Shown here: piece by piece, positions 5,098 through 51,466 of the stretch
How the letters are laid out: the number at the start of each line of letters is the position of its first letter
Position numbering within the stretch: position 1 is the first letter of the stretch
Source: an uncultured virus (IMG/VR IMGVR_UViG_3300031087_000513)
Taxonomy: Duplodnaviria > Heunggongvirae > Uroviricota > Caudoviricetes
Virus record (IMG/VR): IMGVR_UViG_3300031087_000513
Reading direction: 5' to 3' (one strand)
Length of the DNA: 52,544 nucleotides
Translations under genes and position numbers: made by a program
Notes under the pieces: model-generated
Told to the model about the DNA's origin: nothing
The model's input: only the letters and a program-made list of their open reading frames with translations
Database searches by the model: none

Positions 5098-5735
5098 AGG
5101 GACTGGAATGTGTTGAGTGCGAAGTCATTTCTGCGCCGGAACGAATCATCAGTTCTGACGTGATTTTCCCGCACCCACTTCGCAACATGGGTCTGGAAGT
5201 CATCGTAGTGGAAGCTCCCAGCGTCACGGATAACAAATCCTTCGGAAGTATCCTCATCGTGGTTCTTCTCCCATGCGGCAGTGGCTTCGTTGAAGTCAGT
5301 ACCACGGTAGAGAAGAGGAACGGTGTGAAGGTTGAGCAGTTCAGCCCATTCCGTCATCTCGTCCCAGCTCAGAAGACGGTCATCCTCCCACACTGCGAAC
5401 AGCATGAACGGAGAAGGGAGGTCATCATAATCTACTGAACGACGACCCTGCAAGGACTCACCAGAGAGACGGATGTTCTCAGGAAGGTCCCAACGGATGC
5501 GAGTCCAGATACGACGAGCATAGGCATCCCACGGGTGGTTTGTTCCATCAACGCTTCTTGCAAAAGCACGATTGCGCGTTAAATTAAAGTTTGACCCGTC
5601 CAATTTTTCTGTCGAAATAAGTTCAATTCCCGACTGAAGATACTCCAAGGTTTCAGGAGCAACACGCTTGTCATCTGCGCTCAAAGTCTTTGAGGTAGGC
5701 AGGTGGAACGTTCGCGGATACTTTCGGATACTCAT
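5091..5735 (-). CDS. RNA ligase family protein
   Basis: KYPRTFHLP, TEKLDGSN (motif I), EGFVIR (IV), AKWVR (V). Confidence 0.9.
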   Translation of the reverse strand: MSIRKYPRTFHLPTSKTLSADDKRVAPETLEYLQSGIELISTEKLDGSNFNLTRNRAFARSVDGTNHPWDAYARRIWTRIRWDLPENIRLSGESLQGRRSVDYDDLPSPFMLFAVWEDDRLLSWDEMTEWAELLNLHTVPLLYRGTDFNEATAAWEKNHDEDTSEGFVIRDAGSFHYDDFQTHVAKWVRENHVRTDDSFRRRNDFALNTFQSLE

Positions 5736-12642: not shown

Positions 12643-12678
12643 TGTAAGCCCCGCAGAAACGCTTCTGCGGGGCTTACA
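12643..12678 (+). terminator. intrinsic terminator hairpin
   Basis: 16-bp inverted repeat after stop of 11943..12629. Confidence 0.75.
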
Positions 12679-12727
12679 TGTACCGATAAGCCTTATTACC
12701 TCCACCAGAGATAATAAGGAAATAACA

Positions 12728-13132
12728 ATGTACACCTACGGACGTAATACGCGTACCCATAATGCAGTTCTCGTGCTTCTCAAACGCACACTGACATTAT
12801 CAGAAGTATCTGACTCGAGACTCTCTCCTGATGCAGTTTTAGAACTCTTACAAGATGATGAACAAATTCATCCTGTGCTGCGAAATGCTATGAAAGAAGC
12901 TCTAAGCCAAAAAAAGAGGTCTGCATGGATAGTTCTTTGGAATAACGAAGTAGTATCCAATCCTATCCTGCAAACTATCATGAATTTGGGGTACCAACAG
13001 AATCGATCTCTTACTCAAACGCTAAGAGCGGCTCTATCTTTGGCAGCGTTCGAAGAAGAAAAACTGCCATTTTCCAGTACATATGAAGAACGGTACGAAA
13101 TAAAAAAAGATTATGATGCTTGGCTTATCTAA
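12728..13132 (+). CDS. hypothetical protein
   Basis: AAGGA SD sits in the right arm of a hairpin; CGATA motif at 12684. Confidence 0.65.
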   Translation: MYTYGRNTRTHNAVLVLLKRTLTLSEVSDSRLSPDAVLELLQDDEQIHPVLRNAMKEALSQKKRSAWIVLWNNEVVSNPILQTIMNLGYQQNRSLTQTLRAALSLAAFEEEKLPFSSTYEERYEIKKDYDAWLI

Positions 13133-16548: not shown

Positions 16549-17163
16549 TCATAGAATTTTGTCAGTACGAAGCTGGCCCAACCAGGCAATGATAACAGAT
16601 TCGCTCACCGGTGTAAAGTCGTTCGAGTCAACACCAATGTGATACATCCTCCGACTATTGTCATCCCAGTTCTCACGCTGGTGAGTATGCCCATGCAGCA
16701 GCGGCAAACCAGTGTCAGCAGGATGGTGTTTCTCGTGACGGATAGGCTTCTTCTGCTTCCCATAGGAGTTCTTCAAATAAGGGAAATGGCTGAGAAGGAC
16801 TTCCTGACCATCAATCTCAACAGAAGTTGTCTCAGGAAGAATCGTAAATCCAGCATCTTCATATGTCTTACGATGCTTCTCAATATAGCTTTTCGAGTTA
16901 TCGCTGAACAGTTTGTCATGGTTGCCAGGGACAAAGAACTTGTTTCCAGTCATTCCCTGATAGACCCGAATAGAATCCTCCAGGGTTCCCATAGCAATAT
17001 CGCCAAGGAAGTATACGTCGTCATCATTGCCAACAACCGCGTTGTGGTTACCGATGAGGGTTGCATGCATATGTCCAAGAGACTTGAAAGGACGACCATC
17101 CCCAAGTCTTAGAATATTCTCATGACCTATATGGCCATCAGAGGTGAAAAATTTCATAATCAT
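16549..17163 (-). CDS. calcineurin-like metallophosphoesterase
   Basis: SD.H.GH, LGD, GNHD, SHFP, HGHTH, GVD. Confidence 0.92.
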   Translation of the reverse strand: MIMKFFTSDGHIGHENILRLGDGRPFKSLGHMHATLIGNHNAVVGNDDDVYFLGDIAMGTLEDSIRVYQGMTGNKFFVPGNHDKLFSDNSKSYIEKHRKTYEDAGFTILPETTSVEIDGQEVLLSHFPYLKNSYGKQKKPIRHEKHHPADTGLPLLHGHTHQRENWDDNSRRMYHIGVDSNDFTPVSESVIIAWLGQLRTDKIL

Positions 17164-17699
17164 GCAGCTTTCTGATTGACTCTACTCAGGAACCCGTCAA
17201 TCTTGTCCAACTCAGCAACAGTCAGACCGTGATGGCTTTTGGGCGTGATGAACAGACTGTCTTCTTGAGTGCTTTTCTTCACGTACTCACCCCAATGCTC
17301 ATGAGCATTGTCATCCACCCAAACGAATGGACGAGCATGTGCGTCCTGGTCGGCAAGGATAGCTTCTGCTTTCCACTGCGTCCAGTCACGCTTACCAACC
17401 TGAGCTGTATGCAGGTTCGCTGGAAGAACACGGCCGTTATCCAACCCGCCCAAATATTCAGCGAGGCGAAGAACAGTGTTGTTTTCGTTCCAGGTAGTCA
17501 ACCATACAAGCTCAGCATTGTACTCATGACGGAACGCTTCAATAGTCTTCACCACAGTCGGAGAGAACACAATGAGGTTCTCTGGACGGAAGTTGATGCT
17601 GTTCTCAACTTTGATGATGAACTGTTCAACTGATTCATGGAGAGGCTTCTTCGCGTTGAAGACTCCATCAAAGTCAAGGTACAGCGTTGCATCATACAT
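17160..17699 (-). CDS. HAD-family phosphatase (Swiss-army-knife RNA-repair type)
   Basis: LYLDFDGVFN, WLTTW, WK, FVWVDD, GLT. Confidence 0.85.
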   Translation of the reverse strand: MYDATLYLDFDGVFNAKKPLHESVEQFIIKVENSINFRPENLIVFSPTVVKTIEAFRHEYNAELVWLTTWNENNTVLRLAEYLGGLDNGRVLPANLHTAQVGKRDWTQWKAEAILADQDAHARPFVWVDDNAHEHWGEYVKKSTQEDSLFITPKSHHGLTVAELDKIDGFLSRVNQKAA

Positions 17700-17765
17700 G
17701 GTGGTTCAATCTTTCTGAGTCGTTTTGTACTAACATCTTACCACAGAAAGAACTGAACTCGCTAC

Positions 17766-18281
17766 TCAGAACAAGAAGTTTGCTGGGTCTTCTTGAACCT
17801 CAGGCTCTGCAACTTTCGGATACGTGATGGTTCTCTTCTCAGGGTCAATGATGACAATAGGAACATCTTTGCGTTTCGCGTAGCGGACACAGTTACCTGT
17901 TCCACCTTTGGTTCCATCCCAGACAGCCACGACAACAGTTCCATGGTCAACCATGTATTCGTTGCGTTTCTGATAAATCCATGGTCCAACATAATTCACA
18001 GAAGGGTCAACATTGACAACCTCTGCTGCGTTCTCCATCGCCCAGTCATACAATGCTTTATCCTGGTAGCGGGGTGCATGCGCAGCCCATGGGCGTGCAG
18101 CGACGAATGGAATGTTCAGTTCATAAGAAACTTTGGCTGAAAGTAGGTCAATACCTGCTGCCATACCTTGGATGAGCTTTTCAGGAGATAACGTTTGCAG
18201 TACTTCCGTGAGAGCTGATTTCACCCAGTCAGGGTCAGCAATTTTCTCTGGTCGGTGACCTGTGATAGCTACAATCGTCAT
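17766..18281 (-). CDS. YspA-like SLOG family protein
   Basis: ITGHRP, GMA.G.D, RN.YMVD, VWDG..GGT..CV.YA. Confidence 0.88.
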   Translation of the reverse strand: MTIVAITGHRPEKIADPDWVKSALTEVLQTLSPEKLIQGMAAGIDLLSAKVSYELNIPFVAARPWAAHAPRYQDKALYDWAMENAAEVVNVDPSVNYVGPWIYQKRNEYMVDHGTVVVAVWDGTKGGTGNCVRYAKRKDVPIVIIDPEKRTITYPKVAEPEVQEDPANFLF

Positions 18282-18334
18282 AATCCTCTACATCCTTACG
18301 TATATGCTTACCTTCAAGTATATACGAAGAAGAG

Positions 18335-18664
18335 TTATGAGTTCAAGAAAAGGTTCCTGAGACTTTCAACAACGGCAAATGCATGACGGTTCTGTGCAAC
18401 AGTCTGCCCAGCATCCATTTCAACATGCGGAAAGTTCTGAGGAAGAGCGTACTTCTTTACGTACTCGCGGGAGTCAATAGCGATAGACTCAATAGGCTGA
18501 GTGTCAAGCTCAATGTTAGACGTACTCACATAAGCAACAAGGTCAAGTGCAACAGTCGGATGCTTCAGCCTGAAGACAAACTCTTCGTTTTCCTCATCAA
18601 AAACGGAATTCGTGAAACCAAGAGCTTCAAGCTCGGTCTTCCACTCATCAATGTCAAAATCCAC
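18335..18664 (-). CDS. hypothetical protein
   Basis: 109-aa acidic ORF, AAAGG SD. Confidence 0.6.
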   Translation of the reverse strand: MDFDIDEWKTELEALGFTNSVFDEENEEFVFRLKHPTVALDLVAYVSTSNIELDTQPIESIAIDSREYVKKYALPQNFPHVEMDAGQTVAQNRHAFAVVESLRNLFLNS

Positions 18665-18795
18665 GATTCAACCTTTTCTCTCAAATGCTGGTAAGTACGA
18701 TCCTACTTTACCTGACTCATTCTTAGAAGTCAAACCAGGTTGAGTGTGGACAAAAGTGTGAGGGCGAAAGCCATTATGCTCTCGCCCTCACATGT

Positions 18796-19182
18796 TCAAT
18801 ACTTCTGCTGCTGAAGCAGGAGGATGATGACATCGCTGTCACCAAGATGCGGCTGATTCGTCGCAATATCCGCTGCACGAATCTCCTGGACTTCGGACAG
18901 ACCAAGGCCCTTCCAGTACAGCGTTTCCGCGTTCGTGATTGCAGGGCCAACAATTCGTGCTCGCACCGCATTGTATGGCTCTTCCAAGTCAGTGTTCACA
19001 GGCTGCGTCGCATTTGCAATCAGCTCCACAACACCGCGAAGATACTCGCTGTCAACGTTTTCCAAATCAGCCGAACCATCAATGTCCAGGCGGTCAAACT
19101 GACCTCGAGCGGACTGGATAAGCTGCTCACGGATAGCAATGCTGGCAATCATAAGGGAAGACCTCTCTTGTTTTATGCTCAA
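18796..19182 (-). CDS. hypothetical protein
   Basis: NxEYLRG..ELIA motif; start uncertain. Confidence 0.6.
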   Translation of the reverse strand: MSIKQERSSLMIASIAIREQLIQSARGQFDRLDIDGSADLENVDSEYLRGVVELIANATQPVNTDLEEPYNAVRARIVGPAITNAETLYWKGLGLSEVQEIRAADIATNQPHLGDSDVIILLLQQQKY

Positions 19183-19224
19183 CCGGCTTAGTTGATGTGA
19201 AGAGCATATCAGAACCCACTGACA

Positions 19225-19788
19225 TTACTTGAAGTCGGAAGTCTTAAACTGCGTCCACAGGTCAGCTAAGAAAAGCTTGATAGCGTGTGAACCAATCTCA
19301 CGACTGCCAGAAGCGATTTCGTCATTGCTGAACTGTTGCAACTCATCCAAAGTCACCCAACGTAAATCAGTTGACTCACCTTCACCAGGAGCATGCTTGG
19401 GAAGCTCGGTTGTGACAAACAAGAATGAGAGGTCAGTATGGTAATGGCCATCAGCTGCTTTATGCGTGTTGAGCATCAACGGGTACGGGTGAGCAGTATA
19501 GTCAGGGTTGCTCAGGTAGACAGGTTCATTCGGCTGCATGACATTCAGCTGATCCCACTCATAGCCTGCTTCTTCCAAAATCTCATGCTGGATTGCTGCC
19601 CAAGGGGACTCATCTAATTCAACATGCCCACCAGGCTGCAGAAGTTTCTGCATCTTCTTATGCATGTGCAGCAGAAGGCGTGGCTGACCGGCGTAGCCAG
19701 TTTCGCTGGTTGGATCAAGCTCGTAGCGGATAATGAAAGCAGAAGCAGTCAGATCATGCTGACCAGGTTCGGTATGAATATGCGGCAT
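19225..19788 (-). CDS. Nudix hydrolase
   Basis: PGGHVE.DE.P..A..HE..EEAG Nudix box. Confidence 0.9.
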   Translation of the reverse strand: MPHIHTEPGQHDLTASAFIIRYELDPTSETGYAGQPRLLLHMHKKMQKLLQPGGHVELDESPWAAIQHEILEEAGYEWDQLNVMQPNEPVYLSNPDYTAHPYPLMLNTHKAADGHYHTDLSFLFVTTELPKHAPGEGESTDLRWVTLDELQQFSNDEIASGSREIGSHAIKLFLADLWTQFKTSDFK

Positions 19789-27283: not shown

Positions 27284-27306
27284 GAGAAAATCCCTATCGC
27301 TTTAAT

Positions 27307-27347
27307 GTTTGTAGGGACCAGAATTCTGCTTTCTGGTCCCTACAAAC
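27307..27347 (-). terminator. terminator hairpin, 17-bp stem
   Basis: GTTTGTAGGGACCAGAA and its complement. Confidence 0.7.
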
Positions 27348-34354: not shown

Positions 34355-35335
34355 TCAGTTATTTTGAGTGATGGTAATATCATCAACTCGGAAGTAGTTG
34401 CTTCCAGATGCTCCTGTTGTCGTTGCAAAGTCAATGTATGATGAGGTACTTGCTGATGCTGTGAAAGTAACAGAAAGCTTCTTCCAAGTATTAGAGTCTC
34501 CAGTTTCAGTAGATGTTACTCCACCAGCTGACAAGGTTGGTTTGATAAAGCCAGCTGTTGAAACACGAACCCAAGCTTCAACAGTATAATTTTTACCTGT
34601 TGCAAACGTGATATTCGGAGCAACCTTTGAAGTATCAAACCGAACGCTTCCCATAGAAGAAGCGGATGTACCATCTACCTGGATGAAATACGCCCCTGAG
34701 TGCGCAATTCCTGTGAGGTTTTTAGCTCCAATGGTGATGCTTCCAGAATTTGTTTGCAATACAGACCAGCCAGCTGCAGAACCGTTCTCGAAACTATACG
34801 TCCCCAGCACAACAGGAGTTATTGGAGCAGGAGGTGTAGTCTCACTACCATCTGTCGTTTTACCAAGACAAGTAGTTTCATCCTGAACAGCAATTTTCTG
34901 CACACCTTTTGAAGTTGACTTGAAAACTTTACCTGAGCCAGATTTTACATATGCTACATAGTCTGAACCATCTGAGGAAGCAACAACGCAGTAATTATCA
35001 TTAGATGTCAGCAGATCATTCTTTTCCAACCCAGCACTTCCAGTGAATGAAGAATTAAGCACAACCTGATTCGCATCAGCAGTGTCAATTGGATTCGTTA
35101 TTGCATTTTTTAGACCTGAATCTTTGTCAGTGGATAAACCGCGGTAAGCACTTTGAGCTGACGCGATATTGTCCAGTTGTTGGCGGGCTGCATTATCCTG
35201 AGACCAAGGGATAACAGCGAAGACAGTTGCTGCAATTACGCCACCGATGAGACCAATAACGATAATACCAACCATAATAGAAGCCAGGTCAATAGCAGCA
35301 CGGGAAGACTTTAGGGTATTATGAAGATGTAGCAT
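34355..35335 (-). CDS. pilin-like protein with C-terminal CBM4/9-like carbohydrate-binding domain (copy 1)
   Basis: KSSRAA-IDLASIMVGIIVIGLIGGVIAATVFAVIPW prepilin-like helix; FE.G...W, AHSG, Y.V.AWVR, WKKLS.TFTA, VDDI.I. Confidence 0.75.
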   Translation of the reverse strand: MLHLHNTLKSSRAAIDLASIMVGIIVIGLIGGVIAATVFAVIPWSQDNAARQQLDNIASAQSAYRGLSTDKDSGLKNAITNPIDTADANQVVLNSSFTGSAGLEKNDLLTSNDNYCVVASSDGSDYVAYVKSGSGKVFKSTSKGVQKIAVQDETTCLGKTTDGSETTPPAPITPVVLGTYSFENGSAAGWSVLQTNSGSITIGAKNLTGIAHSGAYFIQVDGTSASSMGSVRFDTSKVAPNITFATGKNYTVEAWVRVSTAGFIKPTLSAGGVTSTETGDSNTWKKLSVTFTASASTSSYIDFATTTGASGSNYFRVDDITITQNN

Positions 35336-35360
35336 AGGGGAAGTAGCACTTTCAAGGGGA

Positions 35361-35419
35361 TAAAAATAAGGATGAGGTACGAGTAATCCTGAGAAAACTC
35401 TTACCTCATCCTTATCGGT
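35361..35419 (-). promoter_or_regulatory. CGATA motif embedded in terminator-like hairpin (leader of pilin-like copy 1)
   Basis: ACCG-ATAAGGATGAGGTA...TACCTCATCCTTAT-TTTTATCCCC on minus strand. Confidence 0.7.
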
Positions 35420-35443
35420 ATTATTACTTGTGACCCTTGTTAT

Positions 35444-35725
35444 TCAGTAAGGCAGTCCAGCCCACTTGCGCAGACGGTTCTGCTTCCACTGAGTGGGGTT
35501 CTCAAAGTATTCACGCCAAACCCCAATCTGCCCACCCTGAGTACGAGTGAAAATATACACCTTCTCGTCAACGCCGACGAGTTCAACAACCTGGTCTTTT
35601 ACAGTCCAAGGCTCATCAGTAGGTTTGTTCTCATCAAAGAACGGCAGCAGGTCACTGTTGACCAGGTTCACCATTCGCTTTGCCGACATGGGTGCAGGCA
35701 AAGGGATAGTCTCGTTGATTGTCAT
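35444..35725 (-). CDS. hypothetical protein
   Basis: GGAG SD; 93 aa. Confidence 0.65.
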   Translation of the reverse strand: MTINETIPLPAPMSAKRMVNLVNSDLLPFFDENKPTDEPWTVKDQVVELVGVDEKVYIFTRTQGGQIGVWREYFENPTQWKQNRLRKWAGLPY

Positions 35726-35974
35726 ACTGTTTCTCCAAAATGTTTCTCAAGTCAAAATATAGCTCACTTGGTATCAAACCAAGCATTTGAGCAAGCTTAT
35801 ATGCTACAAACCAGTTCGGTTATCTGCATATGCTGTTCATTATTGCATTATTTCTTCTCATTCACTCCTAATTATATCAGATTCTGACTACATAAGCAAG
35901 ATCATTTGACAGAACCCCATGAAGCTGATAGAGTTTCTCTTGTATCTATAAGAGAGAGCAAAGGAGGTGGCATC

Positions 35975-36292
35975 ATGCTGCCGAAGGTAAACCGAATCAC
36001 AGACCCGAAGGACTTCAAGCTGACCATGCGGAAGGGTAAGCGTATCGCCACCCCGACCGTTACTCTGTTCATTCGTACTCGTACGGATGAGTTGAAGCGT
36101 TACGGCTTCATTGTGACGAAGAAGACAGGTAACGCTGTCGCTCGGAACAAGTTGAAGCGTCAAATGCGTGAGATTGCTTTCACTCACATGAAGGCAAACG
36201 GAAAGGGTGTTGACATCATCATGATGGCGAACCCGAAGGCTGACAGTGTTAGCTGGGAGGACCTGAACAAGGTCATCATGAACCGTATTTGA
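35975..36292 (+). CDS. rnpA: ribonuclease P protein component
   Basis: MLP..NR.....F....RKG, RYGFIV.KK.GNAV.RN.LKRQMRE (RNR motif), G.DII; AAGGAGG SD; TTGACA-17-TAGAGT promoter. Confidence 0.92.
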   Translation: MLPKVNRITDPKDFKLTMRKGKRIATPTVTLFIRTRTDELKRYGFIVTKKTGNAVARNKLKRQMREIAFTHMKANGKGVDIIMMANPKADSVSWEDLNKVIMNRI

Positions 36293-36295
36293 AAG

Positions 36296-36335
36296 AAGAA
36301 AGCCCCTGCAAGTTTTTGCTTGCAGGGGCTTTCTT
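36296..36335. terminator. bidirectional terminator
   Basis: 17-bp stem AAGAAAGCCCCTGCAAG and its complement. Confidence 0.85.
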
Positions 36336-36340
36336 TCGTT

Positions 36341-37432
36341 TTATGAGATTTTTTCTACGGTGATATCATCAACGTAAATAGTGTTTGAATAGTACGCTTT
36401 GTGAGAAACATTGAAATTGATACTTGAATTAACCTTTCCTGCACTTGCTTTTGCAACAACTTCATACGTAACTTGTGTCCATTTATTATCTGCTGGAACA
36501 GGAGAAACGCCTTTTAGAGTTTTATAGCTACTATTACCAAAAGCCGTGAAATCAACAGAAGATAATCCAGCTTGCTCTGGAGACCAGTACACCCATGATG
36601 TTACACGATATGTTTCTCCAGCAACAATTCCAGGAACACTCCGTGAGACAGACCTTGTGACATCGCTTGAATCAGAAGGGGAAATGTATTTAAGAGAGTA
36701 AGAACCTGTATGAGGATATTTTATAGCTGTTACCGAAGTCCCATAAGGGTAAAGATTTGGACTAAAACCCTGAACAGTGCTGTCTTCAAAATTATATGTC
36801 GCAATAAGAGTAGGACCTGGGTCTACGGTTGGTGCAGGAGTAGGAGTAGTAGGGCTTCCGCTACCAGGAGTTGTTCCAGATACTGGCATTGTTGGAATTT
36901 GGCCAGCGCCAGTATCTACGCCAGTGTCAACTGTTCCAGGAGTTTGGGTACCTGAACCAATTGGAGTCACCGTACTATTTACACAAGGCACAGAACCGGT
37001 GTACTCAACAGGGATTTTCTTGCTGTTTGTCGCACTAAACCACTTACCTGAACCGCTTTTAGCATAAGCATGGTAATCGTTACCATCAATAGTAGCAACG
37101 ACACAAAATAGACCTTCTTTGTTCAAGTTAAGCAGTTCATTCGCAGCCAGTTCGCCTGAACCAGCGAACGAATTACGGAAGGAACCTACTGTTCCATCAG
37201 CTTTTTTCAACGAAACATTTGCATCGCTGCTGAGTCCAAAGAATGCATTCTCAGCGATATGAACAGATTCTAATTGCTGTTTCGCTGCTTTGTCTTGGGA
37301 CCAAGGGATGACGGCAAAAACGGTAGCAGCGATGACCCCACCAATCAAACCAATGATGATGATACCAACCATAATGGAGGCTAAATCAATCGCAGCACGC
37401 GAAGATATAAGGACTTTATGAATTTTATTCAT
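36341..37432 (-). CDS. pilin-like protein with CBM4/9-like domain (copy 2)
   Basis: Same N-terminal helix, YAKSGSGKWF, Thr/Pro linker, CBM-like C-terminus. Confidence 0.75.
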   Translation of the reverse strand: MNKIHKVLISSRAAIDLASIMVGIIIIGLIGGVIAATVFAVIPWSQDKAAKQQLESVHIAENAFFGLSSDANVSLKKADGTVGSFRNSFAGSGELAANELLNLNKEGLFCVVATIDGNDYHAYAKSGSGKWFSATNSKKIPVEYTGSVPCVNSTVTPIGSGTQTPGTVDTGVDTGAGQIPTMPVSGTTPGSGSPTTPTPAPTVDPGPTLIATYNFEDSTVQGFSPNLYPYGTSVTAIKYPHTGSYSLKYISPSDSSDVTRSVSRSVPGIVAGETYRVTSWVYWSPEQAGLSSVDFTAFGNSSYKTLKGVSPVPADNKWTQVTYEVVAKASAGKVNSSINFNVSHKAYYSNTIYVDDITVEKIS

Positions 37433-37449
37433 GAGGGAGAGGGCTTTCG

Positions 37450-37510
37450 GGGATAAAATAAGGGTTAAGACAAGAACCTTGAAGGAACTCTTATCTTAAC
37501 CCTTATCGGT
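37450..37510 (-). promoter_or_regulatory. CGATA motif embedded in terminator-like hairpin (leader of copy 2)
   Basis: ACCG-ATAAGGGTTAAGA...TCTTAACCCTTAT-TTTATCCCC on minus strand. Confidence 0.7.
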
Positions 37511-37551
37511 TATATCCCTGATGATATACTCAGCTCAGTTTTGAACCATGT

Positions 37552-38514
37552 TCAATCCTCATTTTTTGTAAGACTCAGAAGGGAACTCTTAGAGGCCAAA
37601 TAGCTTTCCATGATGCTTAGCTCACGAAGCACGTCAGAATTCAACTGCTCCTGCAATGATGTGAACTGTTCACTCAAAAGCTGCAACGCTGGAATAGCTT
37701 TCTCGTACACTGTTTCCTGCTGCTCACTGGAAGAGAACTCCTGAGAACCTGTAATCAAGGCTTCAATCTGCTGACATGACACCATGACTGACTCAACCGC
37801 ATACTCCTGTTCAGCTGTAAGCTTCAAGCTTCTAAACTTCTTCGCATCCACCTGCAAATCAGTCAGTAGAGCTTCAACTGCAAGCTGGTTTTCACTCTTC
37901 TTCGGAACAACCACATCAGAGGTAAGGACCAATGAACTCGGTGTCTCATTCGCGCTATCCATGTAGCCAGTCCACAATTCAGTCAAAGCGATGGATTCCT
38001 TTCCACTCAGACCATTCGTAGGCATAGGAGAACTGGACGGAAGAGTATCAGGAGACGTAAAAAACTCCCCTTCATTCTCAAATGTATCTCACTTCCCTGA
38101 CATGGATTCCTCAAACTGACGGTATGCTTCATCCTCATCCTGAGGACTAAGGGACGAGCTGGGAACATAGTCGCCAACAGTGTACTTGAAGGAAAATAGA
38201 TGTGCTTGATATGCGTAGACAAAAGAAGCAGTCAGTGTCTTGAACGTAGCGTTATAGGTTTTCACCTGCTCAGTAATCATCTTCCGCTTTCGTTCCTGGC
38301 GAGTAGGCTTCCGAGTCAGAACATCAATCAGCGCAGCTCGTACCCGGATGTAGGAGTCCGAGGTTAACGTTACGTCAGCTTCAGGAAATACAGCAAGAAT
38401 CTCTTTCAGAAGAAGAGTCGTCTTACCCGCAAGAGCCTGCTGGACTAACTCAGGGGACAGCTGAATAGAAGCGTACGAATCGCGCAGGCTGGTCTCCACC
38501 ACATAGTTAGTCAT
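37552..38514 (-). pseudogene. about 320-codon gene interrupted by one in-frame TGA (38089-38091)
   Basis: ORFs 38089..38514 and 37552..38025 share a frame, with 21 open codons between them and no SD before the second ATG. Confidence 0.6.
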
Positions 38515-38542
38515 GAGGACAGTATAGCAAATAAGTTAGTGA

Positions 38543-38595
38543 GAGGCAAGAAGCCCCTTCCGTCGTTGTTTTCTACGGAAGGGGCTTCTTGCCTC
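38543..38595 (-). terminator. terminator hairpin, 21-bp stem
   Basis: GAGGCAAGAAGCCCCTTCCGT and its complement. Confidence 0.8.
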
Positions 38596-38608
38596 AAAGA
38601 TACTCTAT

Positions 38609-39664
38609 TTAGGAAATACGTTCTACTTTGACATCATCAACGTAATACTCCGCTGTTCCAGGATTGTTCTTCTGCATCTGAAAAGCTAAATCCTGGCTAC
38701 TGCTTGTTGTTGCAGTCATCTCAAATGAATACTGCTTCCAAGCATTCAAGGTCGGGGTTCTATCTCCAGTTACTGTGGAGTAGTAAGAACCGAAAGCATA
38801 AATGTCTGGCCATTTTCCTTGCTTCACATAAATCCAGGCACTAACACGATATTTTGTACCAGCCACAATATTTGGAACTGTGCCCGAAGTTGTACGAATA
38901 GTGGCAGTATCAGTACCGTTGACGTATAAGCTTTTTGCGCCGTGTCCAGCTGCAGGAGCTGTTGCAATATATTGGGTGCCGTATGTTTGAGGGTTACGGA
39001 AGATGCTTGTACTGCCATCTTCAAAATCGTAAGAAGCGACAGTAGTATATACAGGTACAGGGGTCGTAGGGGTTGTACCAGCATCAGTCCCTGTAGTAGG
39101 AGCGGTACCGATGCTACCCGTTCCATCATCAGCTTTAGGATTCACAGTACCAGCTAGGGAAGGAGTGCTTGCAGTGGTTGCAGTAAGACAAGGAGCTTCG
39201 ATGCCCGCATAGATACTCGGTTGTGTCTTACCGCTGGTGATGTAGAACCATTTGCCTGAACCGCTTTTAGAGTAAGCATGGTAATCCTTACCGTCAGTAG
39301 TAGCGATAACACAGTAGTTACCAGCAGCATTCAAGGTAAGAAGATTATTTACAGCTAACCCAGCGCTACCAGTGAAAGTGCTATTCAATACTACCTGATT
39401 TGGGTCTGACTGACTAATGGGAGAACTTGAAGCATCTTGTAAGCTTGCGTCTTTACTCGTGGACAACCCACGGTAAGCAGATTCAGCAGAAGCAATAGGG
39501 TCAAGCTGCTGTTTCGCTGCATTGTCCTGTGCCCAAGGAATAACAGCGAACACGGTCGCAGCGATAACACCGCCAATAAGGCCAATCACGATAATACCAA
39601 CCATGATGGATGCAAGGTCAATCGCAGCACGCGACGACTTTAGGGCATTATTAAGTTTGAGCAT
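38609..39664 (-). CDS. pilin-like protein with CBM4/9-like domain (copy 3)
   Basis: Same architecture as copies 1 and 2. Confidence 0.75.
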   Translation of the reverse strand: MLKLNNALKSSRAAIDLASIMVGIIVIGLIGGVIAATVFAVIPWAQDNAAKQQLDPIASAESAYRGLSTSKDASLQDASSSPISQSDPNQVVLNSTFTGSAGLAVNNLLTLNAAGNYCVIATTDGKDYHAYSKSGSGKWFYITSGKTQPSIYAGIEAPCLTATTASTPSLAGTVNPKADDGTGSIGTAPTTGTDAGTTPTTPVPVYTTVASYDFEDGSTSIFRNPQTYGTQYIATAPAAGHGAKSLYVNGTDTATIRTTSGTVPNIVAGTKYRVSAWIYVKQGKWPDIYAFGSYYSTVTGDRTPTLNAWKQYSFEMTATTSSSQDLAFQMQKNNPGTAEYYVDDVKVERIS

Positions 39665-39685
39665 AGGGGAACGTTTCTACTCTAA

Positions 39686-39745
39686 GGGGATAAAAATAAG
39701 GATTAGACGAAACGCCAAAAAGCGTTTCATCTAATCCTTATCGGT
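39686..39745 (-). promoter_or_regulatory. CGATA motif embedded in terminator-like hairpin (leader of copy 3)
   Basis: ACCG-ATAAGGATTAGA-T-GAAACGC..GCGTTTC-G-TCTAATCCTTAT-TTTTATCCCC on minus strand. Confidence 0.7.
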
Positions 39746-39896
39746 TAAACTCCATTCAAAGACATGAACCAATGTCCCCAAATAGGAGGACATAGCTTAT
39801 CTATAAATTTATGGCCAGAGAACAACACTATTTTCAATAAAAGGGATAGGGCGGTTCCTGTTTATTCAGGAACCGCCCTTTTTCACTACTTACAGC

Positions 39897-40901
39897 TTAG
39901 AGGAACTGAACACCAGAATCAGTGGTATCAATGTTCAAATTAGCTTTCGCAACGCTACCCTTAGGAGCATTACCCAGCTTCGCAATAGCAGTCACAGTCT
40001 TCTGAGCAACCGCCTTTGTGGAACCCTCAGAAACGAGGTCATCAATCAGCTCATCGTCGTCCAAGTCGTCATTCTCCAAACGGCCAATGACTGCACCAAT
40101 GGTCTCACTGACAGTCTCATCGTTCTCCAAGATAATGACGTTCTTCGCACCGAACAGGTCAGTGTAGAACTTCTGGGAACCCTGCATAGCGGCGGAAGCG
40201 TTATCAATGAGAAGAACGAACACTTCCCACTTCTCCTGCAAGTCAGCAGCCAGCTTCTTCACAGTCAGCTGGTCACGGGCAGGAGCTTCCTCTTCACCAA
40301 TGAACTGGGTGATGTGGCGAGGCTCGAGGTCAAGGGCAACCTCATCAGCAATAACGAAGAGGTAACCCTTCTTACCGCGCTTATCCCAAGCATCAGTTTC
40401 AACGTGCTTGTTCAGGTAGTACCAGAGGAGGGAAGCGGTCTCGCCGCCATTTCCACCACCTCCGCCTTCAAGAAGAAGGTTATCAAGGTTGTCGTCAATT
40501 CGGTTGTCAGATTCAAACTGGCTAACCTGCAATGGAACACGGTCGCAGTAAGCGTCCCCGTATGTTGAGATTAGAACCTGAGGGTCTTCAACATAACCTT
40601 TACGAAGAAGAAGGCCGAATAGGTTAGCAAGTTTTTCCTGGACAATGCGGGGTGTACGCGCCATTGACCCTGTGCTGTCAAACCCGACAACGATTGGGAC
40701 AGCATTTGGGTGGTCTACACCATCACGAGATTCGCGGATGAGTTTGCCATCTGCGTTCTTCTTGGTAGGGTCGAGAGATTCGTGGGCAGCGAAGCGGCCT
40801 GTGCTTCGTGCAGTGCGGTCGTAGCCGAATGTTGTTCCTGATGAAATCTTTGCGCCTGTTGTTGCGGCGTAGGTGCTGGTACTGTAGGTTCCGTAACCCA
40901 T
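39897..40901 (-). CDS. von Willebrand factor A domain protein
   Basis: MIDAS D.TGSM, GDA..D..PLQV.QFE, EGGGGGN.GE, KKGYLF.I.DE. Confidence 0.88.
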   Translation of the reverse strand: MGYGTYSTSTYAATTGAKISSGTTFGYDRTARSTGRFAAHESLDPTKKNADGKLIRESRDGVDHPNAVPIVVGFDSTGSMARTPRIVQEKLANLFGLLLRKGYVEDPQVLISTYGDAYCDRVPLQVSQFESDNRIDDNLDNLLLEGGGGGNGGETASLLWYYLNKHVETDAWDKRGKKGYLFVIADEVALDLEPRHITQFIGEEEAPARDQLTVKKLAADLQEKWEVFVLLIDNASAAMQGSQKFYTDLFGAKNVIILENDETVSETIGAVIGRLENDDLDDDELIDDLVSEGSTKAVAQKTVTAIAKLGNAPKGSVAKANLNIDTTDSGVQFL

Positions 40902-41040: not shown

Positions 41041-43182
41041 ATGAGCAAAAAACCAGAAACGGCACTAAGTCCTTTACTGGTTCGACAATGGCATCCAACG
41101 AAAAATAGGGATTTACTGCCAAGTGATTTTACTGCGGGTAGTAGTAAGAAAATGTGGTGGATGGATGAATTTGGACATGAGTGGGAAGCTAAAATCAGCA
41201 ACCGTACCAATGGTTCTGGTTGCCTTGCTTGCGCAGGAAAACAAGTTCTTACAAACTATAACGACTTACTTTCTCAAAGACCAGTCTTAGCAACTTTTTG
41301 GGATTACACTCTAAACAACGTTACTCCTGACCAAGTTCTTGCTCAATCATCCAAAATCTTTAACTGGAAATGCCCTGCAGAAGGTCATACCTGGTCAGCA
41401 GCTCCTGCCAGAATCCATACTGAAACATGTCCTGTGTGCGAATTACGAATTTGCGTTGTAGGGGTAAATGATTTGCCAACTACGCATCCAATTTTGGTAG
41501 GAGAATGGCATCCAACGAAAAATGAAGGTAAATCTCCTACACAGTTTACTGCTCGGAGCTCTGCTAATGCTTGGTGGCTAGGACCCTGTGAACATGAGTG
41601 GGAAAATCCTATCAGTAGAAGAGCCTTGCAAGGTAAGGGTTGCCCTATTTGCATCAATAGTCAGGTTTTAGAAAATTTCAATGACTTGGCAACTACAAGT
41701 CCTCTTATTGCAGCTCAATGGCATCCAACGAAAAATGGCTCATTCTTGCCTACTCAATTTACTAAGGGAAGCAATCATATAGCCTGGTGGCTGGATGAAT
41801 ATAATCATGAGTGGGATGCTTCTATAAGAGAGCGTCAAAAATACGGTTGTCCAATCTGCGCTGGTTTCGTTATTCTAATAGGGTTCAATGACCTGGGTTC
41901 ACAATCGCCCGTAGTTGCTAGTCAATGGGATTACGAAAAAAATGGTGACATCACACCTCAAATGGTAACTCCTTATACGCATGCTAAGCATTGGTGGCTA
42001 TGTGATAAAAATCACTCGTGGGATGCCACAGTGGGTTCCAGAGTTAGAGGCGCAGGCTGCCCTTACTGTTCTGGAGCAAAAATTCTTTTGAACTTCAATG
42101 ATTTGGAGCGCACTCACCCTATTCTTGCAAGGGAATGGCATCCAATTGAAAACGATGCAACCCCGCAAGAAGTTAGCGCTGGGTCAGGGTATAAGGCTAA
42201 GTGGGTATGCGAGAAACATGGGATTTGGAAAGCTGCGGTCAAAGACAGAGTATATAAAGGTTCTGGTTGTCCATCTTGCGCCCGCAGTATTTCTCAACCT
42301 GAAAATGATATCAAAGCATTCTTGAAGGCTTTAGGTTTTACAGTAGAAGATAGAGTTACAGGCATACTTTCCAAACGGGAAGAAATTGACCTTTATATAC
42401 CTGAACAGAAATTTGGAATTGAGTTCAACGGTATTCGGTGGCATTCAGATATCTTCAAGAAGAACAAAGATGGGCATTTAGCTAAGTATCTTGCTGCAAA
42501 AAATGTTGGCATTCAACTTGTGCAGATTTGGGAGGATGATTGGAAGAAGCGTCAACCTGTCATCCTTCGCGCGTTAGCGCACAAACTGGGAGTAACAGAC
42601 AAACTTGCTGAGTTCTATCCAGAGTTGCAGGCTGAGACAAGCAGAGTATTTGCTCGGAAGACTCAGATTGTTGAGCTGGCAAGTAAAGATGCGAAGGAAT
42701 TCTTGGAGTTCAACCATATTCAAGGATTTGCTTCTGGTTCGTACTATCTGAGCTTGCAGGATCAGCACCAGGTTACACGCGCTGTTCTGGTGTTGAAGAA
42801 AGAGGCAGGCACCAATGGGAAGACTTTGAACATTGTGCGTTATGCCACCAGCGGTTCTGTTGTTGGTGGGTTTACGAAGCTTCTCAAATATGCAGTGAAA
42901 ACTTATCAGCCAGATGATTTCATTACTTTTGCTGACCATACTATTAGTGATGGTGGATTGTATGAAGGTAATGGGTTTGTTGCTGATAAAGAACTGCCAC
43001 CTGACTACATGTATGTGGTGAAGGGTGAGCGGAAGCATAAGTTCGGGTACCGGTTGAAGCGTTTCCGTGATGACCCTGAACTATTGTGGGATGAGAATAT
43101 GAGTGAGCGAGAGTTGGCTCAGCTGAATAACCTCCCACGTATCTGGGATGCTGGGAAGACTCGATACCGTTACACTGTGTAA
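41041..43182 (+). CDS. treble-clef zinc-ribbon repeat protein with C-terminal PD-(D/E)xK endonuclease (Hef-like homing endonuclease)
   Basis: About six W(H/D)..KN...WW.C..GH.W.A....R...GCP.C repeats; EIDLYIPE..GIEFNG..WH; IWEDDW; IWDAG. Confidence 0.85.
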   Translation: MSKKPETALSPLLVRQWHPTKNRDLLPSDFTAGSSKKMWWMDEFGHEWEAKISNRTNGSGCLACAGKQVLTNYNDLLSQRPVLATFWDYTLNNVTPDQVLAQSSKIFNWKCPAEGHTWSAAPARIHTETCPVCELRICVVGVNDLPTTHPILVGEWHPTKNEGKSPTQFTARSSANAWWLGPCEHEWENPISRRALQGKGCPICINSQVLENFNDLATTSPLIAAQWHPTKNGSFLPTQFTKGSNHIAWWLDEYNHEWDASIRERQKYGCPICAGFVILIGFNDLGSQSPVVASQWDYEKNGDITPQMVTPYTHAKHWWLCDKNHSWDATVGSRVRGAGCPYCSGAKILLNFNDLERTHPILAREWHPIENDATPQEVSAGSGYKAKWVCEKHGIWKAAVKDRVYKGSGCPSCARSISQPENDIKAFLKALGFTVEDRVTGILSKREEIDLYIPEQKFGIEFNGIRWHSDIFKKNKDGHLAKYLAAKNVGIQLVQIWEDDWKKRQPVILRALAHKLGVTDKLAEFYPELQAETSRVFARKTQIVELASKDAKEFLEFNHIQGFASGSYYLSLQDQHQVTRAVLVLKKEAGTNGKTLNIVRYATSGSVVGGFTKLLKYAVKTYQPDDFITFADHTISDGGLYEGNGFVADKELPPDYMYVVKGERKHKFGYRLKRFRDDPELLWDENMSERELAQLNNLPRIWDAGKTRYRYTV

Positions 43183-43761: not shown

Positions 43762-43861
43762 AATCGTTCTTTGCATAATTGAGGTTGTTTCAGACTTTAT
43801 TGACCGTATCACCGATATGCATTACAAGAATACTTTTCTTCTATTGAAAGCTTTTACCTTT

Positions 43862-46042
43862 ATGAAACCTTTGCATAAAATTCTTGCTGTTGTAACAGCA
43901 ACCGCTGTTCTGGTGGGTGTACCAGTTGCGGCTCAAGCAGGTGAAATTCCTCGCTCAGGCGCATACGCTTGGGGGTCGAACACCGCAGGTTCTTTGAGTA
44001 CGGGAACCACTGATTCTATCATTTCTCCTACTCTGACTAAAACTGCTTCAAACTTTCCCATTGCTCAAATTTCTACTTCCGCAACACACAGCCTTTTCGT
44101 TGACGATAAGGGGAATGTGTATGCTTCTGGTTCTAACGCTCATGGCGAATTAGGAAACGGAACAACCACTGACTCAGCTACCCCAGTGAAAGTTACACTA
44201 CCATTACGATACGGTGTTCCTGATTATGCTACCCAAATCTGGACAGGTAACGGTGTCTCCTTTATGGAAGGTGGATTCGGTGACTTGTATGCTTGGGGTT
44301 CTAATGAGAACGGGTTGACTGGTTTAGGCCAAACAACTGGTGACACTCTCACCCCAACATCTGTTGGCCTTACTTTGGTCAACACTGAAAGTAAGAACCT
44401 CAGTGTTGGGAAGGACCATGTAACAGCAATTCATGGAAGTCCTTTGATGGGAGAGCAAATATATGCTTGGGGTTCTAACGCCACTGGGCAATTAGGTAAC
44501 TCTACTCTTGGAACTGGCATTACTTCTGAACCTACACGTGCAATTATCCCAGACCCTAATGAGGATAAAACTAAGACGGTCACAACCTGCACCACTGATT
44601 CAGAAGGATTTGAGTCTTGTGAAGATAAACAAGTTCCTAAAACTTACTATGAGTTCAATGGTTTGAATGCAAGCTATGTTGCAAACGGGGATGGTTTCTC
44701 TGTTGCGCTTACCAGCGATGGAACAATCTACACGTGGGGGAAGAACAATGCTGGTCAGTTAGGTACTGCTTCTTCAACCCAAACAATTGTCCGAACACCA
44801 ACAACTTCTCCTGCTCTGCGGCTTGAGAACGGGGCTTCTGTCAACTCCATTTCAGCTGGTGACTCCCATGTTGTTCTTCTTGCTTCTAACGGCCTGCTGT
44901 ATGGTTGGGGTTCTAACTCTCATTCCCAAACTGCCCCGTATTACGAAAATTCTCAGAACGCTTCTTATCTTCCAGTATTACAGCGTTTGACTATTCTGCA
45001 GGAAAACAACAGTTTATCTCCTTGGGAGTATGTCATTGCTTCCGGTAACTCTTCTTATGCTGTGACGAACGATGGAAACATCTACGGCTGGGGAGATAAC
45101 AGCAAGCATCAGCTCACTCAGTTGAAACCAGTTGTTACAGTGCCAACTAAGATTGCATTCCCGTATGACACTGAGGTAAGTTCATTCACCGCTGGTGGAG
45201 GAAGTGTTATTGCATTGGCGAATTATACTGAAACCTACACTGATTTGAACCTTCCTTCTGCGACTTTCGCAAATGGAACGTACAACACTTCTTACACGAA
45301 GAAGTTAACTGCTAATGGAGGTTACCCTGGTAACCCTCTGACCTGGACTATCTCAGGTCTTCCAGCAGGTTTGACGTATAACGCTTTGACAGGAACCATC
45401 ACAGGTAAACCAACTGTTGCAGGAACCTACACTGTCAACTATGGAGTCACAGATAATGTTGATTCTCTTTCTGACAGTGCAACTCTTGTTATTGCAAAAG
45501 CGACTCCAACAGTTACACCAACATACACGTCAACCACTCCTGGTAAAGTCACTGCGAAGGTTACTGTCCTTAACGGAACCGAAGCTGCAACAGGGGCAGT
45601 TCGTTTTTACGTGGGTACAAAGTACACCACTGTGAACCTTACAAAGGGAGCTGCAACAACAACGCTTTCTTACACAGCTGGAAGTGCACAGAACTTGAAG
45701 GTTGTATACACAGGTAGTAACGTTTTGAATACTGTTACCAGCAGTACGAAGAGTGTGAAATCTTTGGCGAAGTGGAGTGTTACTCCTAAACCATCGTACA
45801 GCACGAAATCCCGAACAGTTACAGTGAAAGTGCCAGCTATCAAATCTGGTTCTGTCTATGCAACTGGCACTGTCTACCTATATGATGGCAGCAAGAAAAT
45901 TGTTACCAGCAAGTTGAAAAATGGAGCAGTAACATTTACGAAGAGTTTCGCTAAGGGTAACCATAAGCTGACTGTTCGTTATGCAGGAGATGCAAACTTC
46001 ACTGCGAAGAACTCCGCAGTGAAGTCAATCACTTTGAAGTAA
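43862..46042 (+). CDS. secreted RCC1-repeat beta-propeller protein with Ig-like domains
   Basis: Signal peptide (AQA); repeated Y.WG.N..GQLG..P; He_PIG-like GLP.GL..TG.ITG.PT; two Big_3-like YxG domains. Confidence 0.88.
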   Translation: MKPLHKILAVVTATAVLVGVPVAAQAGEIPRSGAYAWGSNTAGSLSTGTTDSIISPTLTKTASNFPIAQISTSATHSLFVDDKGNVYASGSNAHGELGNGTTTDSATPVKVTLPLRYGVPDYATQIWTGNGVSFMEGGFGDLYAWGSNENGLTGLGQTTGDTLTPTSVGLTLVNTESKNLSVGKDHVTAIHGSPLMGEQIYAWGSNATGQLGNSTLGTGITSEPTRAIIPDPNEDKTKTVTTCTTDSEGFESCEDKQVPKTYYEFNGLNASYVANGDGFSVALTSDGTIYTWGKNNAGQLGTASSTQTIVRTPTTSPALRLENGASVNSISAGDSHVVLLASNGLLYGWGSNSHSQTAPYYENSQNASYLPVLQRLTILQENNSLSPWEYVIASGNSSYAVTNDGNIYGWGDNSKHQLTQLKPVVTVPTKIAFPYDTEVSSFTAGGGSVIALANYTETYTDLNLPSATFANGTYNTSYTKKLTANGGYPGNPLTWTISGLPAGLTYNALTGTITGKPTVAGTYTVNYGVTDNVDSLSDSATLVIAKATPTVTPTYTSTTPGKVTAKVTVLNGTEAATGAVRFYVGTKYTTVNLTKGAATTTLSYTAGSAQNLKVVYTGSNVLNTVTSSTKSVKSLAKWSVTPKPSYSTKSRTVTVKVPAIKSGSVYATGTVYLYDGSKKIVTSKLKNGAVTFTKSFAKGNHKLTVRYAGDANFTAKNSAVKSITLK

Positions 46043-50701: not shown

Positions 50702-51466
50702 ATGATATGTTCATTAGATTTTTGTAATAAGGAAGTTATTGCTAAGCAAGTTTGTAAGGGTCATTATTCTCAACTGAGAGCTGGACGGCCTTTTAGCCCT
50801 ATCAAGTCGCCTTCTGAATATCTAAAAAATAATCTTTGTTCAGCTACAGACTGTAAAGCTACTGCCAAAACTAAAAAATTGTGCCAACGTCATTACGATA
50901 AAGAACGTAGGGCGAAAAAGGCTAAACCCAAAATTTCCAAGCCTACTATTTGCTATGGGCCTGCATGCGACCGCAAACCTGTAGCAAAAGGTCTATGCAA
51001 TTCTCATTGGGCTCAACTAACAAGACATGGCGAGTTGCGACAAATTGTAACGAACGAAACTATCCTTCAGCGTTTTAATAAAAATATTCAAGAAGATGAG
51101 AATGGGTGTTGGAGATGGATAGGTGCGGGAAGTGGGAAAAACTACGTAGCTGAAACAGGAGAAGGCGGCTACGGACAGCTTCGGTATGCCGGAAAAAGCT
51201 ATATGGCCCATCGTTGGTCATATGAGTACTATAATAAAGTTACCCTACATAAAGAAGACACATTAGATCATTTATGTAGGGTAACCAGATGTTGCAATCC
51301 TGAACATTTGGAAATTGTTAGTAGGTCCGAAAATGTCAAAAGAAAACATTTGTACGAACAATTACGTTCTGAAAATGAGCGTATGAGATTATTTATTACT
51401 TCGTTAGGATACGAACCTAACGTTATATTAGGAGGTGATTATCATCCAGACCTTTCTTCCCTATGA
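50702..51466 (+). CDS. HNH endonuclease with three N-terminal C-x4-C-x9-C-x2-H zinc fingers
   Basis: CW.W.G, GYG, AHR.SYE, DHLCR...CCNP.HLE.V...EN. Confidence 0.9.
   Translation: MICSLDFCNKEVIAKQVCKGHYSQLRAGRPFSPIKSPSEYLKNNLCSATDCKATAKTKKLCQRHYDKERRAKKAKPKISKPTICYGPACDRKPVAKGLCNSHWAQLTRHGELRQIVTNETILQRFNKNIQEDENGCWRWIGAGSGKNYVAETGEGGYGQLRYAGKSYMAHRWSYEYYNKVTLHKEDTLDHLCRVTRCCNPEHLEIVSRSENVKRKHLYEQLRSENERMRLFITSLGYEPNVILGGDYHPDLSSL

Follow-up and report, generated by a model that had tools for sequence, protein, structure and literature searches.

What might a long RNA hairpin be doing at the very point where a gene would be expected to keep its promoter? This question is raised by three paralogous minus-strand genes for pilin-like proteins that lie in a 52,544-nucleotide stretch of DNA, here called the window, which is recorded as an uncultured virus of the Caudoviricetes (IMG/VR record IMGVR_UViG_3300031087_000513). 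Each of these genes stands behind a leader of 77–83 nt. The answer that we would place just on the probable side, in which both the start and the termination of transcription are inferred, is that each leader serves as a terminator for transcription arriving from upstream and overlaps a promoter of an alternative-sigma type.

Read on the minus strand, the leaders run from ACCGATAAGG through a long stem-loop to CCTTAT, a run of four or five Ts, ATCCCC, a GAAAG-like element and finally the ATG. The exact ACCGATAAGG occurs three times in the window, only on the minus strand, at 35410–35419, 37501–37510 and 39736–39745; with up to one mismatch, eight matches are found against 1.6 expected, a number reached by 0 of 100 shuffles. 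Each block contains an exact copy of the −10-like element ACCGATAA (minus strand, 35412–35419, 37503–37510 and 39738–39745 in copies 1, 2 and 3, respectively), the GATAA of which, in copy 1, doubles as the base of the hairpin's 5′ arm. The hairpins themselves begin within ACCGATAAGG and close with CCTTAT, the T-rich stretch and ATCCCC. On the minus strand, copy 1 occupies 35365–35416, with a 15-bp outer stem and an inner 4 + 2 bp; copy 2 occupies 37457–37507 and is followed by TTTATCCCC; and copy 3 occupies 39695–39742, with 22 continuous pairs, and is followed by TTTTATCCCC. In the leaders a U-rich tract, TTATTTTTAT or TTATTTTAT, comes directly 3′ of G-C closing pairs. That of copy 1, TTATTTTTAT and then CCCC(T), lies at 35355–35369 (−) and is kept in all three copies and in homologous leaders. 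A GAAAG at 35349–35353 (−), 13 nt before the ATG of copy 1, resembles a Shine–Dalgarno sequence and may act as one; related leaders carry a similar element 7–13 nt before the ATG. The ATCCCC motif is found at 35356–35361, 37449–37454 and 39686–39691 (−), and ATCCCC or CCCC also precedes GAAAG by 1–5 nt in most pilin-like leaders of the metagenome loci L019–L079 (see below), hairpin-less ones included. At L028 and L029, ATCCCC forms the 3′ arm of a hairpin that begins directly after the −10 element.

Folding of the minus-strand RNA gave −30.4, −27.8 and −32.7 kcal/mol for copies 1, 2 and 3, with z-scores of −6.73, −5.86 and −8.84 and no equal among 200 shuffles. The plus strand folds less stably (−27.8, −22.0 and −26.8 kcal/mol), because, in copies 2 and 3, it has C/A mismatches at positions where the minus strand forms G·U pairs. 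The stems are 20–24 bp long and AU-rich, in contrast to the GC-rich hairpins after other genes of the window, and the three have diverged in sequence with their pairing retained; the 5′ arm also carries hexamer-like repeats (ATAAGG ATGAGG TAAGAG). A simple scan for terminator-like structures detects copies 2 and 3, and misses copy 1 only because of its inner loop. In Rfam, no match to the window attained a gathering score, and the region 35200–39900 gave only chance-level hairpin matches at E-values up to 1. The architecture set out in the original prediction is therefore sound (ACCGATAAGG exact in all three copies; z-scores of −5.9 to −8.8), and so is its observation of minus-strand wobble in copies 2 and 3, a preference for G·U over A·C that recurs among homologs.

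Where the three genes encode the same residue within their first 55 codons, the third base is identical in 38–50% of cases. It follows that these are old paralogs and that the leader blocks, which are 100% identical, are not the remnant of a recent duplication. To judge from this divergence, the perfectly conserved blocks are evidently held by selection.

Homologs of the leaders allow the pairing to be examined more widely. A scan of metagenome contigs with an alignment of the family yielded 61 loci, and 99 upstream regions of pilin-like genes were extracted, with regions offering less than 140 nt upstream or no start codon being dropped; 91 of the 99 are distinct. Of the 72 that carry CCGATA, 17 fold at −17.9 kcal/mol or better, and these represent about nine sequence types. 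A covariance model built from 11 hairpin leaders and searched against 110 kb of 11 sources returned 18 sense-strand matches with E < 1e-10 (57.8–92.5 bits), all before pilin-like genes and two of them new, at locus ends; antisense scores were 21–46 bits. Copies 1, 2 and 3 of the window matched at 86.2, 75.5 and 78.6 bits. In the resulting alignment of 14 distinct leaders, 94.9% of the cells are paired and 12 of 20 pairs have changed on both sides, values reached by 0 of 500 shuffles, and partners that are slid out of place pair at 37–56%. RNAalifold, applied to a MAFFT alignment, likewise found a compensatory change in 11 of 14 pairs. The pairs just past the fixed GATAA vary together (GG:CC, AT:AT, AG:CT and GA:TC), opposite the T of GATAA stands, in 14 of 14 distinct leaders, the lone A that interrupts the U tract (TTAT), and a T-rich tract follows the hairpin in every one of the 14. 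Clearly, the covariation first noted among the three stems of the window is real, and it extends to the homologous leaders.

Imperfect pairs bear on the question of which strand is selected. Single-sequence folds hold, among their non-basal pairs, about 13 G·U against one A·C on the sense strand, and the covariance-model alignment, which mis-registers the copy 2 family, holds 17 against six (p = 0.035). This excess indicates that the sense-strand (minus) RNA is under selection, and appears to favor minus-strand RNA over a DNA cruciform or an antisense RNA. The covarying pairs include outer ones upstream of the predicted transcription start (alignment columns 13–19), so the full hairpin matters in RNAs that start further upstream.

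The second component of the leader is CCGATAA. CCGATA is present in 72 of the 91 distinct pilin-like upstream regions and CGATA alone in three more, against 3% in shuffles and one of 91 on the opposite strand. The motif occurs both with and without a hairpin, is the sole conserved upstream block, and lies at a bimodal distance from the ATG, 35–56 nt or 62–83 nt, with hairpin-less leaders showing the range of 35–56 nt. Across 375 kb, made up of the window and the metagenome loci, 97 of 152 distinct CCGATA sites (64%) are intergenic, and intergenic bases account for 12.8% of the total. Within the window, CGATA occurs at 62 sites, of which 15 are intergenic, and all 15 point at a gene start 4–82 nt downstream. 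Among the 87 CCGATA sites in the 375 kb that fall no more than 130 nt upstream of an open reading frame (ORF) on the same strand, 51 stand before pilin-like genes and 36 before other genes, among them those for lipoproteins and for an RCC1/Ig-domain surface protein of the window. The motif is thus not specific to pilin genes; its distribution suggests a general promoter type in these small genomes, used by pilin-like, lipoprotein and other genes.

Further evidence for a promoter comes from genes that have no leader at all. As originally reported, the ATG follows the C of CGATA by 16 nt in the leaderless genes at 1037 and 27283; a further gene of this kind, at 41041, has a spacing of 15 nt. In all, 11 ORFs (118–713 aa) begin 14–17 nt after the first C of [CG]CGATA and have no room for a ribosome-binding site: these three and one each at L019, L020, L026, L045, L052, L053, L065 and L070. 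From this spacing, the motif occupies the −10 position before leaderless mRNAs, which seem to be common in these genomes. Considering the intergenic enrichment, the 72 of 91 leaders and the leaderless ORFs together, the proposal that CGATA or CCGATA is a promoter element stands up well, and CCGATAA appears to behave as a −10 element.

The kind of promoter is suggested by the element itself, as ACCGATAA, in all three copies, agrees at seven of eight positions with GCCGATAA, the −10 of the sigma-28 (FliA/SigD/WhiG) class. According to the available text of one report, the flagellar-clade sigma consensus consists of a −35 TAAA and a −10 GCCGATAA, and type IV pilus genes of Rubrobacter are under the control of WhiG (PMC8325347), which provides a precedent for an alternative-sigma-type promoter before pilus genes. 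At the fliC promoter of Pseudomonas aeruginosa, as far as the accessible text describes it, the −10 spans −15 to −8 and +1 follows the last A of GCCGATAA by 8 nt (PMC12784957). This register would place +1 fourteen bases after the first C and agrees with the leaderless ORFs, the spacing of which fits −15 to −8. Classical sites also occur nearby, namely TTGCCT-17-TATACT at 38549–38521, directly before a leaderless ORF, and TTGCTT-17-TATAAT at 35899–35871, so CCGATAA seems to mark a second class of promoter. Both the ORF at 37552–38025 and that at 38089–38514 lie behind the first of these sigma-70-like sites (38521–38549).

With the fliC geometry and the leaderless spacing as guides, transcription of the pilin-like genes would start on the minus strand at 35404, 37495 and 39730 (±3 nt), so that roughly the outermost 12 nt of the 5′ arm would be missing from the gene's own transcript. 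The original estimates were 3 nt further on, and were said to fall just past the left arm. The expected start falls within the 5′ arm of the hairpin: the stems of copies 2 and 3 are unbroken, and the predicted distance there places it in the left arm rather than past it. When cut short at the predicted starts, the RNAs fold at only −2.9 to −14.2 kcal/mol, with an inner hairpin that begins at +1 and ends 8–13 nt before the U tract.

The third line of evidence concerns termination. Intrinsic terminators with an upstream A tract consist of a stem-loop and then a U-rich tract, as described in the introduction of a recent preprint (Fletcher, Forrest, Cooper, Adams, Kapanidis and Grainger; bioRxiv 10.64898/2026.08.19.745784). 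The leaders likewise have a stable stem-loop on the transcribed strand with a U-rich tract directly after the stem, and their A-rich GAUAA pairs with part of that tract. Unlike ordinary intrinsic terminators, they have much longer stems (20–24 bp) that are AU-rich, and the A tract doubles as the −10 of a promoter. Genomic context fits a terminator as well. A strong hairpin is present in nine of 14 leader clusters with a co-oriented ORF ending no more than 60 nt upstream, versus one of 31 others (Fisher p = 2e-5, indicative only, as the 45 non-redundant clusters are related). Among the five close-ORF clusters without a strong leader hairpin, three have a separate strong hairpin squeezed in upstream. 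Longer upstream gaps usually hold a separate GC-rich hairpin before the promoter, and divergent upstream ORFs usually come with none. In the window, the distance from the end of the co-oriented upstream ORF to the −10 element is 25 nt in copy 1 (ORF of 93 aa; 35444–35725, −) and 42 nt in copy 2 (157 aa; 37552–38025, −).

Together these components suggest how the leader could work, and of the readings considered, the mechanism first proposed has the best support. ACCGATAA would be the −10 of a promoter that resembles the sigma-28 (FliA/WhiG/SigD) class without a recognizable −35, and its GATAA, with the next 7–8 bases, would serve also as the outer 5′ arm of the hairpin that precedes the U-rich tract. 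A polymerase coming from a co-oriented upstream gene would copy both arms; the full hairpin would then form beside the U tract, and the upstream transcript would end there, or at least be severed from the pilin gene. A polymerase recruited to the embedded promoter would place the start some 14 nt beyond the first C of CCGATAA. The resulting RNA would lack the outer arm, would form only a small 5′-terminal inner hairpin 8–13 nt from the U tract, and would therefore be expected to escape termination and continue into the pilin-like gene. 5′-terminal stems of this kind are known to stabilize mRNAs. A fuller version of the proposal, which we offer tentatively and with less than even confidence, is that an ultrasmall, probably saccharibacterial, lineage has evolved a self-insulating promoter by placing an alternative-sigma-type −10 without a −35 in the 5′ arm of an intrinsic terminator. 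A single element of 50 nt would thus end upstream units of the sigma-70 type, start a terminator-immune lectin-pilin transcript within the stem, and leave the inner stem as a protective hairpin at the 5′ end.

A related arrangement is that of promoter-coupled terminators. In the available text of the preprint cited above, a terminator and the next promoter are said often to overlap: the role of the −35 is taken by the DNA of the stem-loop, the −10 comes right after the T tract, and transcripts end about 10 bp upstream of the start, with termination sites within about 35 bp upstream of the next start (10.64898/2026.08.19.745784). The leaders share with these the use of common DNA by a terminator and the next tandem promoter between co-oriented genes, which saves intergenic space. 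Unlike them, the leaders have the −10 in the 5′ arm, the predicted start inside the stem and the U tract about 40 nt downstream of that start, and the locally started RNA must evade the terminator, possibly by lacking the outer arm. This inverted geometry, with the start in the stem and before the point of termination, was not found in the accessible part of the preprint (10.64898/2026.08.19.745784). The promoter-coupled order itself does occur in the present material, at 12684 and 27299 of the window and at L060, L061 and L070, where a GC-rich hairpin ends 5–15 nt before the −10. At 12683–12740 (+) of the window, the promoter CCGATAAG stands 5 nt after such a GC-rich hairpin and is followed by a small hairpin, CCUUAUUA…UAAUAAGG. 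The 3′ arm of the latter carries an AAGGA ribosome-binding site and its 5′ arm extends across the predicted start, so that masking of the site would be possible only in read-through RNA.

Attenuators and riboswitch platforms are another family in which the formation of a terminator hairpin decides downstream transcription. Unlike these, the leaders show no alternative pairing or ligand and match nothing in Rfam, and the proposed outcome would be set by the 5′ end of the RNA.

Of course, several observations weigh against a terminator that overlaps a promoter. Unlike sigma-28 promoters, CCGATAA sites have no conserved −35: no TAAA is kept about 15 nt upstream, and in a logo of the 72 leaders (45 non-redundant) the information ends, going upstream, at atAT.ACCGATAA. 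At −15 an A usually replaces the G, and many of the genes that follow are not pilus genes. A phmmer search with actinobacterial sigma proteins against all ORFs of the 375 kb found no sigma gene. With regard to the pairing, the covariance-model alignment is itself fitted to the structure, and the clusters with a hairpin are related to each other as paralogs and orthologs, so that both the Fisher test and the shuffle controls make them look more independent than they are. For copy 3, a separate GC-rich terminator-like hairpin lies about 100 nt upstream of the promoter (39848–39879, −; 13 pairs, nine of them G-C), after the gene at 39897–40901, and an identical leader at L024 (ATG at 1102) follows a divergent ORF call; in both contexts the hairpin is kept where termination would be unneeded. 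The base of the stem adjoining the U tract is AU-rich, and among other putative terminators of the window, which are GC-rich, a T tract is often missing, as after genes at 38560–38605, 12645–12680 and 27305–27335. Factor-independent termination may here depart from the rule in Escherichia coli, and the termination rules are accordingly uncertain. At L046, L048 and L049, a GC-rich hairpin and U tract lie wholly downstream of the predicted start, behind a divergent ORF, which conflicts with the logic of escape. Finally, a general rule that CCGATA promoters start within a hairpin arm was considered and rejected: in a test on 72 non-redundant leaders, the gain in folding energy for the 61 without a strong hairpin was no greater with their own than with swapped first 14 nt (−2.98 vs. 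−2.97 kcal/mol, p = 0.73). The hairpin design is confined to 10–11 clusters of one pilin-like subfamily.

One alternative is that the hairpin is a processing or 3′-end-stabilizing element, for example an RNase III substrate, in which the duplex is cut or protects the upstream mRNA and the messages are separated post-transcriptionally. The unusual length of the stems and their AU-richness, which set them apart from other hairpins of the window, would suit such a duplex, as would the several putative terminators without T tracts, since hairpins in this DNA may chiefly protect 3′ ends; covariation fits this explanation equally well. We nonetheless consider it unlikely, as the T-rich tract is present in all of the distinct leaders aligned and copies 2 and 3 are detected by the terminator-like scan.

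Another possibility is that transcription starts further upstream and that the whole hairpin belongs to the 5′ untranslated region of the pilin mRNA, as a 5′ stabilizer or a protein-controlled attenuator, with CCGATAA not being an active promoter there. The retention of the hairpin in copy 3, in spite of the separate terminator upstream, would then be readily understood, as would the L046-type leaders with hairpin and U tract inside the predicted transcript, and the hexamer-like repeats of the 5′ arm could be a protein site. Against this, CCGATA is the only block conserved upstream, and it keeps its distance of 35–56 nt from the ATG where there is no hairpin and of 14–17 nt from leaderless ORFs; strong hairpins are, moreover, nearly absent with a divergent or distant upstream ORF (one of 31 clusters). 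This explanation strikes us as slightly less likely again than the preceding one. It is very improbable that the feature acts as DNA, whether as a cruciform, as an operator bound by a dimeric regulator or as a site at which pilin cassettes are shuffled by recombination: conserved outer arms around a variable paired center do recall recombination sites, and the repeats flank paralogs with a conserved 5′ part and variable 3′ domains, but DNA pairing would not yield the asymmetry between strands (G·U over A·C on the sense strand, with the sense fold the stabler), arms 30–40 bp apart are too distant for a simple operator, and domain and profile searches revealed no recombinase beside the copies.

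The three genes that would be controlled in this way are alike in plan. Gene 1 (34355–35335, −; 326 aa) encodes an N-terminal pseudopilin-like helix and a CBM_4_9 domain (Pfam E = 8.7e-9), with a weak GspG match at the N-terminus (E = 0.003). Gene 2 (36341–37432, −; 363 aa) aligns with the family and has a similarly weak GspG match (E = 0.013). Gene 3 (38609–39664, −; 351 aa) encodes a long N-terminal helix, a small sheet domain and a C-terminal beta-sandwich of the CBM type (CBM_4_9, E = 3.5e-6). In the AlphaFold model of the gene 3 protein, the helix spans residues 11–68, the small sheet 117–143 and the beta-sandwich 206–350, the last at a pLDDT of 80–96, and Foldseek relates the sandwich to CBM22, CBM16 and CBM4 (E of about 6e-8). 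The N-terminus is near-invariant among 38 homologs (SSRAAIDLASIMVGIIVIGLIGGVIAATVFAVIPW) and, with the modeled helix, gives the hydrophobic N-terminal helix and globular head of a type IV pilin or pseudopilin. In NCBIfam the best match was GspG, at 15.5–18.3 bits against a cut-off of 88.85, and no profile scored above its cut-off; a canonical prepilin peptidase site of the G|F-T-L-x-E type is absent, the sequence reading SSRAAIDLAS. It is for these two reasons that the proteins are called pilin-like.

Among 437 homologs, many of which are on contigs of 0.78–0.88 Mb, this N-terminus is joined to CBM_4_9, DUF285, He_PIG or RCC1 domains. A saccharibacterial origin is likely, by comparison with the lectin-like minor pilins PilX1 and PilX2 of Nanosynbacter lyticus TM7x (PMC11623550). 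As far as the available text shows, the likeness is one of architecture, with a pilin-type N-terminal helix and a globular domain, to which a sugar-binding beta-sandwich or beta-propeller is fused at the C-terminus. The accessible parts of the literature on PilX1 and PilX2 yielded nothing on promoters or leaders, and our search of the literature on Saccharibacteria and TM7x found nothing on promoters, sigma factors, transcription starts or gene switching.

A scan of genome contigs gave just four loci, and none of these is saccharibacterial. Two loci lie in actinobacterial genomes. On a Curtobacterium contig, L015 (3780–4140) holds a pilin-like gene whose product has an almost identical N-terminus (…GAIDLASIMVGIIVIGLIGGVIAATVFAVIPWAQDNA) and whose ATG lies 38 nt after GCCGATAG. 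This gene is within an 8.5-kb stretch of 57.5% GC, and the other sampled loci of the genome have 69–71% GC; the gene may have passed between epibionts and an actinobacterial lineage that hosts them. In Citricoccus, locus L016 carries CCCGATAT upstream of a remoter homolog. Both genomes gave only sub-threshold matches to FliA and WhiG. A sigma gene on the L015 contig is in ordinary high-GC actinobacterial DNA and adjoins a predicted anti-sigma ORF; from its size and this neighbor, it looks to be of the extracytoplasmic function (ECF) type.

Other parts of the window are also of note. The gene for an RCC1/Big_3_5/He_PIG surface protein has, at 43812–43864 (+), the leader CCGATAT-N27-TTGAAAG-N12-ATG, in which translation probably begins at 43862 rather than at the first ATG, 43817; the former start yields a signal peptide (MKPLHKILAVV…AAQA), and a GC-rich hairpin lies about 45 nt upstream. 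The gene at 41041–43182 (+), which has a predicted leaderless CGATA promoter, encodes a 713-aa protein with six DUF4379 treble-clef zinc-finger repeats and a weak MTES_1575 restriction-endonuclease-like domain. Proteins encoded at 16549–19788 (−) have Metallophos_2, HAD_SAK_2 (“Swiss Army Knife” RNA repair), SLOG/YpsA-like and NUDIX domains, and are of an RNA-repair or nucleotide-signaling type. Elsewhere there are an RNA ligase (5091–5735), an HD protein (1500–2309), two SprT-like proteins, an ORF with an ADP-ribosyltransferase domain (8034–9020) and an HNH endonuclease (50702–51466), so that the window looks like a mobile or defense-rich region. The HD, NUDIX, RNA ligase, ADP-ribosyltransferase and HNH domains had suggested a phage origin, which was abandoned when blastn and tblastn against 50,697 phage records gave no match. 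A protein scan of IMG/VR found no relative, and 14 IMG/VR matches to the leader pattern were set aside as chance, none having the hairpin with ATCCCC or a pilin gene.

What appears to be new in these leaders is the inverted coupling, as the parts, an intrinsic terminator and a sigma-28-like promoter, are known. They offer a compact overlap of terminator and promoter in the order opposite to that of promoter-coupled terminators, and also CCGATAA, with a start predicted some 14 nt beyond it, as a promoter motif that can be tested in these genomes. If the overlap works as proposed, the 5′ end of a transcript alone could decide whether a terminator functions, and such an element would help in the annotation of tiny genomes and be of use as a compact insulator in genetic tools for Saccharibacteria, for which natural transformation and reporter cassettes are available (PMC10633639). 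According to the available text on TM7x, ultrasmall epibiotic bacteria find and hold their hosts by means of type IV pili and lectin-like pilins (PMC11623550). The strict stage-specific expression originally envisaged for the three pilin-like genes is a guess; should the leaders function as suggested, each host-binding pilin paralog could be expressed independently.

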